DNA of 23,217 nt from Candidatus Sigynarchaeum calidifontis (lineage in GTDB: Archaea; Asgardarchaeota; Lokiarchaeia; Sigyniarchaeales; Sigyniarchaeaceae), in NCBI GenBank assembly GCA_030587475.2, contig JAUQYZ020000210.1:1-23217 (forward strand), given 5' to 3'. The position numbers were made by a program, and so were the translations under genes. The first letter of the stretch is position 1. Every line of letters starts with the position of its first letter. This document shows, in pieces, positions 1,934 through 4,659 of this stretch. The notes under the pieces were generated by a model. It made no database searches and was not told the origin of the DNA. It saw only the letters and a list, made by a program, of their open reading frames with translations.

Positions 1934-3016
1934 TCACTTCAAGTTCATATTCTTTTCGAATTGTTGGAGGGAACCGCCGCTGGATTCGACGAGCTGGCGA
2001 AGCTTGCCCAGGGCCGCGCCGGATTCAATCGATGTCCTTGCAAGCTTGACTGCCTCCTTCATACCAGTGTTTTTTTCTCCCACCATTATGGCCAGGGCGC
2101 TGTTCATGAGAACCGCGTCGACCAGCGCCCTCGGGCCAGCACCATTCAATATGTCTATGAAGGCGCGGATCCCCGATTGTCTGTCCTTGCCGACCATCAA
2201 GTCCGAGAGCGAAGCCGCGGGGAGCCCGAAATCCGCGGCATCGAGAGTCCGCGCGGTTATCGAGCCATCGGCCAGCCGTTCATGCACGTGGTTCCTTCCC
2301 GCGGGAAGTAGCTCGTCGGCACCATGCTCGTTGTACACGAGAAAGAATCGCCTGACCCCGGCTTCGACCAGCACGCGTGCCATCAGCGGCGCGAGATCAT
2401 TGGCATAGACGCCAAGTACCTGCCCTGAAGCGCCAGCCGGGTTCGTGAGCGGCCCGAGCACGTTAAAAATGGTTCGCAGGCCGATCTCCTTGCGCGGTCC
2501 CGCCGCGTGCTTCATGGCCGGGTGGAAAACGGGGGCAAACATGAACCCGATCCCGGCGTCTCGTATTGATTTCTCCACCACTTGAGGCGGGGCCATGATG
2601 TTCACGCCAAAATGCTCCAGGATGTCAGCACTCCCGCATGTCGACGTGACGCTCCGGTTCCCGTGCTTGGCAATGGTCACGCCAGCCCCGGCAGCGACGA
2701 GGGCCGACAAGGTGCTGATGTTGATGGTCTTGAGCGTGTCGCCCCCGGTTCCGCACGTGTCGACGATGGGGGTGCCCGTGACGGGCCGTATCATGTTTCC
2801 CAAATCCTTCATGCAGCGCACGAGCGCGGCGATTTCGGACACCTCGGGTTCATGCACCTTGAGTGCCACGAGAAAAGCACCAACCTGCGCGGGCGTGGCA
2901 TTCCCAAGAAGTATATCCCGCATTGCCGCGTATGCTTCATCTGGATCGAGCGCCTTGCGCTCTATGATTTTCTTGTGGATTGCTTTCTTGATTTCGATAG
3001 CTTCTTGAACGATCAT
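1934..3016 (-). CDS. trpD: Anthranilate phosphoribosyltransferase
   Basis: Motifs VDTCGTGGD, NIST, AKHGNRS and RTIFNVLGPLTNPA. Start placed at MIVQEAI (3016) rather than 3106 because the extra 30 codons do not resemble TrpD. Confidence 0.95.
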   Translation of the reverse strand: MIVQEAIEIKKAIHKKIIERKALDPDEAYAAMRDILLGNATPAQVGAFLVALKVHEPEVSEIAALVRCMKDLGNMIRPVTGTPIVDTCGTGGDTLKTINISTLSALVAAGAGVTIAKHGNRSVTSTCGSADILEHFGVNIMAPPQVVEKSIRDAGIGFMFAPVFHPAMKHAAGPRKEIGLRTIFNVLGPLTNPAGASGQVLGVYANDLAPLMARVLVEAGVRRFFLVYNEHGADELLPAGRNHVHERLADGSITARTLDAADFGLPAASLSDLMVGKDRQSGIRAFIDILNGAGPRALVDAVLMNSALAIMVGEKNTGMKEAVKLARTSIESGAALGKLRQLVESSGGSLQQFEKNMNLK

Positions 3017-3294
3017 CGTGAATTCCTCTGATATTTTTGCATGATTCTTGTGGATCCCGCAAAAAGTTCTGCAATCAAACCGCGAGTGAATTTGAAGAAT
3101 GCCCATCGCGGCTTAATTAAATTCAAGAACGAGCATCGATTGTTGATGAGGTGCTATGTCTAAAACTCGGCGTGCAAGCCATCAACGAACGACGCAAGAA
3201 AGAGCGGCGCGGTACCTCGGATTGACATTGGATCGAGCCCGGCGCCTCGAGTTTACCCGCGCCAGGACCATGCAATGGTCCGAGGAAGTACCAT
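3017..3294 (-). promoter_or_regulatory. Putative trp operon leader/attenuator with alternative RNA stems and a U-rich tract
   Basis: Pairing segments (+ coordinates): 3265-3281 perfect 7-bp hairpin; 3259-3266 with 3238-3245; 3254-3263 with 3206-3214; 3279-3292 with 3211-3221. These are followed by CUCUUUCUU (3196-3204) on the mRNA. Confidence 0.6.
3253..3294 (-). CDS. Putative trp leader peptide MVLPRTIAWSWRG (13 aa; up to 20 aa, MHMFFFIMVLPRTIAWSWRG, if an upstream ATG at 3309 or 3315 is used)
   Basis: ATG GTA CTT CCT CGG ACC ATT GCA TGG TCC TGG CGC GGG TAA. Two Trp codons near the C-terminus, about 240 nt upstream of trpD on the same strand. Confidence 0.6.
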   Translation of the reverse strand: MVLPRTIAWSWRG

Positions 3295-3316
3295 GATGAA
3301 GAAAAACATGTGCATG

Positions 3317-3324
3317 AATAAAAA
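3317..3324 (-). promoter_or_regulatory. Putative archaeal TATA box for the trp leader transcript
   Basis: TTTTTATT on the minus strand, 23-30 nt upstream of the ATG at 3294, the spacing expected for a leaderless transcript. Confidence 0.45.
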
Positions 3325-3411
3325 GGTAGTGGGAAACAATTGGGAAATTTTATCTAATGGATAAACTTGGTTACCACTGGTTTTCTATTGCCACGAGGTG
3401 GATATCCAAGC

Positions 3412-4659
3412 ATGAACGTGGACACGAGCGCGATTCCGGCGGTCGCCGCGCGGGAGAGGATCGAGCCGGGGAAGCTCGAGCGGCTCGTGCGGGATGGCAA
3501 CGTCGTTCTCATGGGCCGGAACGATGCCACGCGGATCGCCATCGGAAAAGAGCTACGCACCAAGGTGAATGTCAACCTCGGTACTTCGCCCGTGTCATGC
3601 AACGAGGCAGAGGAGCTGGAAAAGGCTGCGATCGCGAAGCGGTATGGCGGCGACACGATCTCCGACTGTTCAACCGCGGGCGATATAGACACGCTCCGCA
3701 GGAAACTCGTTACCCGTGCCGGAATGCCCGTCACGACCATCCCGGTCTACCAGGCCGTCGTGTCGGCAGGCTCTTTCGAGGCCACGAGTGACGAGATCAT
3801 CCTTACAACCATCGAAAAACAAGTCAAGGACGGGGCGGCGTCGATCGTGATCCACGCGGGGTTCACCCTGGAAACGCTTCGGGTACTGAAGAAAAGCGGC
3901 CGGATCATGGGCATCGTGTCCAAGGGGGGCTCGATGACCGCCGCCATCAGCTTGAGCCAGGATCGGGAGAACCCGTTCGTCACGCTCTTCGACGACATCC
4001 TCGGGGTGCTCGAGGGAACCGGCGTCGTGCTCAACCTGGGCAACGCGATGCGGAGTGGCTGCGTGCACGACCTCAAGGACGAGCCCCAGCAGCAAGAGAT
4101 CCACGCCAACGCCCGCCTCGCGGCGCGCGCGAACGAGCGCGGCGTGCAAGTCATCATCGAGGGCCTTGGCGGGCACGTGAATGCCCGGGACCTGAAACAC
4201 TGGATAGAGGAGCACAACCGGATCACCGGGAACCGGCCATTGTTCGTCGCCGGGCCGCTTCCCACGGAGATCGGGGTGGGATACGACCATATCTCTGCCG
4301 CGATCGGCGGCGCGATGGCTGCCGGGTATGGTGCTGATTACTTGTGCGCGATCACGCCGGCCGAGCACCTGGGACTTCCCAACGTGGCGCACGTCCGCGA
4401 AGGCGTCGTCGCCGCGCGGATCGCGGCCCATGTCGGCGACTCGATGAAGTTCGGCATCGGCGCTTGCTTCGACGAGGACAAGCTCCTGTCGGAAAGCCGG
4501 TCGCGGAAGGATTGGCGCGCCCAGTTCGAGCACGCGATCGACCCCGATGCTGCCAGGGGCGTCCACCCGGACGAGGGGAAGGAGTGCAGCATGTGCGGGA
4601 AATTTTGCGCCATTGCCATCATGCGGAAGTACGGGTTCCATTCACCGTTCGTTGGCTAG
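3412..4659 (+). CDS. thiC: ThiC-family radical SAM enzyme, divergent paralogue (HMP-P synthase or BzaA/B/F-like)
   Basis: Motifs TKVNVNLGTS, PVYQA, GIVSKGGS, ENPF, GYDHI..AIGG, TPAEHLGLP and C-terminal CSMCGKFC. SD-like GAGGTG at 3395-3400 before ATG 3412. Confidence 0.85.
   Translation: MNVDTSAIPAVAARERIEPGKLERLVRDGNVVLMGRNDATRIAIGKELRTKVNVNLGTSPVSCNEAEELEKAAIAKRYGGDTISDCSTAGDIDTLRRKLVTRAGMPVTTIPVYQAVVSAGSFEATSDEIILTTIEKQVKDGAASIVIHAGFTLETLRVLKKSGRIMGIVSKGGSMTAAISLSQDRENPFVTLFDDILGVLEGTGVVLNLGNAMRSGCVHDLKDEPQQQEIHANARLAARANERGVQVIIEGLGGHVNARDLKHWIEEHNRITGNRPLFVAGPLPTEIGVGYDHISAAIGGAMAAGYGADYLCAITPAEHLGLPNVAHVREGVVAARIAAHVGDSMKFGIGACFDEDKLLSESRSRKDWRAQFEHAIDPDAARGVHPDEGKECSMCGKFCAIAIMRKYGFHSPFVG

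Follow-up and report, generated by a model that had tools for sequence, protein, structure and literature searches.

A candidate tryptophan-sensing leader peptide and RNA switch upstream of the trp operon in the Asgard archaeon Candidatus Sigynarchaeum calidifontis

Upstream of the trp operon of Candidatus Sigynarchaeum calidifontis there is a short leader open reading frame (ORF) within a conserved RNA fold, which is very probably a cis-regulatory element that senses tryptophan and is read by the ribosome. The output of this sensor is a far more evenly balanced matter, with the model favoured here being premature termination of transcription that would not need a hairpin and would probably depend on the nuclease aCPSF1. 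The leader is found in the window, by which is meant the whole 23,217-nt stretch of DNA that was analysed, a contig (C208) of a 5.0 Mb genome that is 89% complete. A sequence-only reading of the window had already proposed a Trp leader peptide and attenuator, and the 13-codon ORF ending in W-S-W-R, the TATA-like box and the pyrimidine tract it described were all confirmed at their coordinates; helix 2:3 and the hairpins at 3195-3133 and 3118-3073, which are described below, were absent from it.

The gene behind the leader is trpD, whose product has as its nearest named relatives proteins labelled Lokiarchaeota, Sigynarchaeota or Promethearchaeota, which places the host among the Loki-type Asgard archaea. 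The left end of the window truncates trpB, and 57 identical bases there overlap contig C17, which carries the remainder of trpB followed by trpA, trpE and a trpG-like gene; the operon continues on this overlapping contig and trpD therefore heads a complete operon. The trpD start in relatives is the equivalent of 3016, the one with a Shine-Dalgarno (SD) site, and the version called by the ORF finder (1934-3106, minus strand) begins at an ATG at 3106 that is within hairpin E. Divergent from the leader is thiC (window 3415-4659, plus strand), as is also the case in L104 and L105, with 3415 the probable start in preference to a TTG at 3367. At other loci (L005, L006, L007, L049, L051 and L057) an ORF of 85-110 amino acids is found immediately 5' of trpD, from about -350 to -4, and it sits between leader and trpD wherever a leader was found.

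The leader ORF runs from an ATG at 3294 through Trp codons at 3270-3268 and 3264-3262 to a TAA at 3255-3253, and ends 236 nt before the trpD ATG. Two further in-frame ATGs (3315 and 3309) just behind the TATA box are missing from most relatives and are expected to fall upstream of the predicted transcription start. Shuffles of the leader region yield a comparable ORF in only 0.5% of cases. Orthologous ORFs of 13-15 codons are present in 12 close relatives, and the changes in length among relatives keep the frame. For a wider survey a leader ORF was defined as one that starts with ATG, is 8-36 codons long and has W-x-W or WW within its last nine residues, and was sought upstream of 49 trpD loci with at least 300 nt of upstream sequence, drawn from across the class and from close protein homologues, kin that are not independent of one another; the count of in-frame TGG codons is circular and was excluded from the evidence. 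Such an ORF was found at 37 of the 49 loci, against 0 of 49 on the antisense strand, 0.8% of shuffles and, in a near-identical test, 15 of 1727 upstream regions of this genome (0.9%, including those of trpD and trpB2), thus the conservation upstream of trpD that the sequence-only reading called for is borne out.

The 12 misses include three loci with an ATG ORF in which two Trp codons are spaced more widely, one with a TTG start, three where trpD is internal to an operon behind trpEG, two with Trp-rich frames that have no ATG, and three where nothing was found within 600 nt upstream. In L040 and L048 the region from -330 to -50 before trpD holds frames with three final Trp codons and a stop, without an ATG, which may be leaders of another order that have a non-canonical start or have decayed. 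The pattern covers several families and two genes (trpD and trpB2), with leader peptides that share little sequence across families beyond the clustering of Trp at the end.

Table 1. Features of the trp leader, the first genes of the operon and related leader ORFs (positions are those of the window unless another locus or contig is given)
Feature	Position	Strand	Remarks
TATA-like box	3317..3324	minus	-30..-23 from leader ATG
Leader ORF	3253..3294	minus	codons 9 and 11 of its 13 encode Trp
GGAC inside ORF	3278..3281	minus	near-invariant across trpD and trpB2 leaders
Segment 1	3259..3266	minus	5' arm of helix 1:2, over the second Trp codon; 1:2 paired in 93.6% of cells, with C-G replaced by U-A in 3 relatives
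Segment 2	3238..3246	minus	shared arm; partner is segment 1 or segment 3
Upper stem of 2:3 hairpin and loop	3216..3237	minus	3237-3234 with 3219-3216; 86.5% paired; both sides changed in L109
Loop motif CA-N-N-GUY	3230-3224	minus	invariant in 16 trpD and trpB2 leaders
Segment 3	3206..3210	minus	3' arm of helix 2:3; 87.7% paired as aligned automatically; L105 and L109 show compensatory changes
Pyrimidine tract 1	3196..3204	minus	candidate archaeal-type termination or cleavage signal
Hairpin D	3133..3195	minus	basal helix 3195-3190 with 3138-3133; 96.2% paired, compensatory changes on both sides
Pyrimidine tract 2	3125..3132	minus	
Hairpin E	3073..3118	minus	strong; sequence varies between relatives
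Shine-Dalgarno-like site of trpD	3024..3028	minus	genome uses SD at -15..-12; 16S tail with anti-SD
trpD	1934..3016	minus	first gene of trpD-C-F-B-A-E-G; TIGR01245 over cut-off
trpC	1927-1103	minus	
trpF	1101-436	minus	
trpB2 leader ORF	L064:1149-1205 (G000:C203)	plus	18 codons; same RNA core as trpD leader
ilvB leader ORF, probable	L136, about 2157-2240 (G000:C250)	minus	26 codons, Ile/Leu/Val-rich; SD and TATA
pheS leader ORF, candidate	G000:C199:1734-1799 (L139)	plus	21 codons, four Phe, two of them tandem
hisG upstream ORFs, possible His leader	G000:C29:5643 and 5698 (L138)	plus	one with three His, one with two terminal His

From its sequence the promoter is expected to give a leaderless transcript that starts at about 3294-3296. 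The placement of the TATA-like box for such a start, which had been proposed for this window, is kept in seven close relatives, where the box is at -28/-30 and in one of them is a canonical TTTAAA; in the remaining leaders it is found at -52 to -60. Across the genome TATA-like peaks before divergent first genes are near -30, -39 and -57, and the positions seen in the leaders agree with these peaks of leaderless and short-leader genes. No conserved internal TATA was found between leader ORF and trpD and a sigma-70 scan of the leader was empty. Promoter control of the TrpY or Tar type could coexist with the leader.

The leader RNA folds more stably than shuffles of it, with z of -2.5 for 3296-3185 and -3.5 for the whole leader. 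At its core are helices 1:2 and 2:3, which are mutually exclusive because segment 2 is common to both and which are close in energy (-15.4 and about -14 kcal/mol). Helix 2:3 is formed by 3246-3242 with 3210-3206 plus the upper stem, and is 87% paired in an alignment of 13 close trpD leaders, from relatives that are not independent. Five of its pairs are changed on both sides, none of 500 shuffles matches its covariation score and slid controls score far lower, whilst most of the unpaired cells stem from four rows whose register is shifted by one base and which do pair when each is folded singly; segment 3 is register-shifted yet paired in L032, L107, L108 and L112. The first codon over the GGAC varies between Arg, Gly and Trp, therefore the constraint acts on the RNA, and the fold taken up without a ribosome allows the GAC to pair with the loop motif's GUY. 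The alignment of relatives, which had been suggested as a check, thus finds ORF, Trp codons and compensatory pairs kept in the 13 close leaders.

The particular stems proposed from the sequence fared less evenly. All four can form and they do overlap, but, helix 1:2 apart, their conservation is incomplete and the stem before the tract is kept only in its core. The hairpin at 3281-3265 is partly kept (83%), as is the helix 3285-3279/3221-3215 (76%), with no compensation in either, and both may belong to the ribosome-free fold. The stem between segments 1 and 3 (3263-3254/3214-3206), put forward as the terminator, has 68% of cells paired in 13 relatives and is intact in this genome only, and the 4-bp long-range extension (3292-3289/3214-3211) has 35%; both were ruled out as conserved elements by these values. 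A search of Rfam with the leader at E up to 10 gave chance matches only and no T-box, and a search of the genome with RF00513 found nothing, with the E. coli control positive.

The effect of a ribosome was modelled on the nascent RNA of 17 leaders with a footprint that blocks 15 nt counted from the codon in the P site, as measured in Haloferax (PMC7261190). Without a ribosome the median modelled probability of 1:2 is 0.80 and that of 2:3 is 0.05, with the latter rising to 0.99 when the ribosome is at either Trp codon and standing at 0.37 when it is at the stop. With the ribosome on the first Trp codon 2:3 exceeds 0.5 in 16 of the 17 leaders, so the idea of a ribosome-dependent structural switch, proposed from one sequence, holds up in the model, here as a flip from 1:2 to 2:3; at the stop 2:3 still exceeds 0.5 in 8 of the 17, that is, it is removed only partly. 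The loss of 1:2 is built into the model, as segment 1 is covered; what is informative is the presence of a partner, itself covarying, that is ready to pair. The stop codon is 0-6 nt before segment 2, and in 12 of 13 trpD leaders segment 3 ends 56 nt past the last Trp codon, even though the stop shifts by up to two codons. With no ribosome present, segment 3 often finds a new partner in the 5' part of the ORF, hence it is not simply exposed, and in this equilibrium model the pairing of tract 1 hardly alters between ribosome states.

A paralogous leader is found in the same genome upstream of a stand-alone trpB2, with the same R-T-I-A-W-x-W core as the trpD leader. Among 30 other trpB2 loci about 20 have Trp-rich leaders, as do all four of the nearest. 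The core common to the trpD and trpB2 leaders stops at tract 1, with a spacer of anything between 158 and about 275 nt before the gene. A covariance model built on this core gives significant matches to trp leaders only, one of which is outside the training set (E 3e-6), and on other leader families gives no useful E-values; as the core model does not reach these families, their folds differ. Further downstream this genome's trpB2 leader has a strong hairpin and a U-rich run, the 5' arm of the hairpin being able to pair with segment 2. A classical 3:4 terminator was considered for this leader and dropped, as the three related trpB2 leaders that were read show no such hairpin and U-rich run at this position.

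The step from sensing to output would involve the pyrimidine tract that follows. Tract 1 is found in 17 of 17 leaders of the family, in which segment 3 ends 46-56 nt past the last Trp codon, and helix 2:3, the fold of the starved state, stops one base short of it. Its longest U run here is U3, with no U4, and several relatives have U4-U6. In this genome hexamers of the tract are 3-6-fold enriched on the sense strand behind gene ends, with ratios such as 23:4 and 24:7. Termination in archaea uses U-rich RNA and aCPSF1/FttA, with no hairpin required (PMC8716108, PMC11616081); Loki aCPSF1 recognises U tracts without need of a hairpin and is functional in Methanococcus (PMC8716108), and FttA contacts RNA from -1 to -36 with a preference for U-rich sequence (PMC11616081). 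The genome has an aCPSF1 gene, which scores over the cut-off, and neither TrpR nor TRAP was found in this 89% complete assembly.

In the proposed mechanism the transcript would begin at or near the leader ATG and be translated during its synthesis. When charged tRNA-Trp is scarce the ribosome would stall at a Trp codon and cover segment 1, leaving 2:3 to pair, and the stalled ribosome together with the 2:3 hairpin packed on the tract would keep the termination factor off, a protection that we infer. When Trp is ample the ribosome would reach the stop, weaken 2:3 and depart, allowing 1:2 to take over, and with the ribosome released aCPSF1/FttA would gain the tract and terminate transcription at or just after it. 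Gating of termination by 2:3 and a stalled ribosome is favoured because there is no 3:4 terminator, control of the binding site is unsupported, the shared core ends at the tract, the tract hexamers are gene-end-like and aCPSF1 is present. A hairpin that abuts a U-rich tract does resemble a terminator, but as such it would have the wrong sign: it would close the operon under Trp shortage, so 2:3 must be the ON state.

The same sensor could instead control the translation of trpD, with a relay through hairpins D and E hiding or freeing the ribosome binding site and polarity silencing the remaining genes. The genome does use SD sites, the length of the leader to trpD is constant (278-283 nt in 11 relatives), tracts in some relatives are able to pair with the SD and, in L107 and L112, the 5' arm of D is open to invasion by segment 3. 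This output, also allowed by the sequence-only reading, is nonetheless unlikely: in equilibrium folding the SD and start are equally accessible wherever the ribosome is placed, the pairing of tracts with their own binding sites is no better than with those of others (permutation p 0.48; the window's tract pairs no better with its own SD than with 89% of the SD sites of the genome), and the paralogous trpB2 leaders retain just the core up to tract 1. It is slightly less likely still that the sensor acts after synthesis, with aCPSF1 or another nuclease cutting the finished mRNA at the tract and leading to its decay, or the leader protecting it. The endo- and 5'-3' exonuclease activities of aCPSF1 (PMC8716108, PMC11616081) would suit such a role, and hairpins D and E keep their fold and not their sequence, as stability elements do; however, the placement of the stop at segment 2 and the fixed spacing from Trp codon to tract are typical of co-transcriptional attenuators, and nothing here indicates action after synthesis.

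Classical attenuation of the bacterial type, with an intrinsic hairpin-plus-U terminator, whether this is the 1:3 stem, a stem of segments 3 and 4 or hairpin D ahead of tract 2, is improbable. Helices 1:2 and 2:3 do follow the classical order, L107 and L112 have a 7-bp 3:4 stem, and the strong hairpin and later U-rich run of this genome's own trpB2 leader could be read in the same way. A terminator scan of the leader found no terminator-like site, though, and pairing between segments 3 and 4 amounts in most leaders to just 2-3 bp, with the tract inside the stem and not after it and with no U run following; hairpin D is present when the ribosome is stalled, which is the wrong sign; the 1:3 stem is as poorly paired among relatives as described above, and the trpB2 hairpin is not kept in place in the three related leaders read. 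Since both 2:3 and the 1:3 stem end at 3206, starvation also leaves a hairpin ahead of the tract, which rules out a bacterial hairpin-plus-U terminator as the switch. The loop motif, invariant and unpaired, and the GGAC could mark a binding site or a tertiary contact, and bacterial trp leaders can work in trans (PMC7298713), which might indicate that the element is an RNA bound by a protein or ligand, an arrest peptide responding to free Trp, or the source of a trans-acting peptide or small RNA, without the charging of tRNA-Trp being read. Such readings are very unlikely, as the peptide is unconserved across families save for its terminal Trp codons, no Rfam family matches, and an Ile/Leu/Val-rich ORF before ilvB and a Phe-rich one before pheS make a cognate-codon pattern. 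That the ORF is due to chance, or is a non-functional relic, is already largely refuted and scarcely credible: short ORFs are common and the relatives are not independent, but an occurrence of 75% against under 1%, length changes that keep the frame, two gene contexts and compensatory pairs all stand against it.

Comparable leaders are known from bacteria. Like the leader here, the enterobacterial trpL (RF00513) has 13-14 codons with Trp codons near the end, the first trp operon gene behind it, exclusive 1:2 and 2:3 helices with segment 1 over the control codons, and a stop just before segment 2. It differs in that the Trp codons here alternate (W-x-W), the promoter is of the TATA type and probably leaderless, there is no GC-rich 3:4 hairpin with a U run and there is no sequence homology; it is the sensing half that works like trpL, whilst terminator and homology are lacking. 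To our knowledge archaea are without Rho, and aCPSF1/FttA would stand in for it. E. coli tnaC and Salmonella mgtL are leader-peptide attenuators that depend on Rho, with TnaC an arrest peptide that senses high free Trp in a catabolic operon, whereas the leader here fits starvation for a cognate codon before a biosynthetic operon. What would be shared with tnaC, mgtL and the corA leader is that ribosome position or an exclusive fold sets the access of a termination factor with no intrinsic terminator, although the corA switch is described as structural (PMC13675443). Set beside such factor-dependent attenuators, the leader has aCPSF1 in its genome and a gene-end-like tract, and in the model it is the fold 5' of the tract that switches, not the pairing of the tract. 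Actinobacterial trp attenuators share three short GC-rich complementary segments starting from the Trp codons, and are also found before a trpB2 operon, but have GC terminators with poly-U; it is the actinobacterial cys leaders that have no terminator hairpin and carry polypyrimidine motifs, proposed to be for Rho (PMC1262725).

Early papers on the Haloferax trp genes are said to have noted alternative leader folds, and Xie and Reeve reportedly suggested in 2005 that charged tRNA-Trp might be sensed through the one Trp codon of trpY, which is its second codon. Control of the archaeal trp genes has hitherto been known only through DNA-binding proteins, namely the TrpY repressor of Methanothermobacter, which the sequence-only reading had named, and the activator Tar (TK0271) of Thermococcus (PMC6737238). 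These serve the same pathway but bind DNA and act at initiation, whereas the leader is a cis-acting translated RNA. No archaeal leader-peptide attenuator was found in the literature covered, beyond which most subscription papers lie.

A conserved leader-peptide switch implies that in Asgard archaea transcription and translation are coupled closely enough for regulation, a matter on which direct evidence is scarce, and if true it would be a regulatory use of such coupling in the lineage nearest to eukaryotes. The element is a portable one of 100 nt, with predicted mutants and compensatory pairs by which both coupling and the gating of aCPSF1 could be tested. It may not be alone, as an unbiased scan of the genome ranks second among upstream ORFs one before acetolactate synthase in which 17 of 26 codons are for Ile, Leu or Val. 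With probable ilv and phe leaders alongside trp, cognate-codon leaders thus look, from their sequences, like a general habit of the organism. That Loki-type Asgard archaea attenuate the operons of amino acids, those of trp and trpB2 and probably also ilv and pheS, by means of a stalled ribosome and an RNA switch that gate the CPSF73-like nuclease aCPSF1, and not by a hairpin terminator or Rho, is a proposition for which we see the case as about level. Past the stop of the ilvB leader there is an 8-bp stem, the loop of which shows a pyrimidine tract complementary to the leader's own SD.
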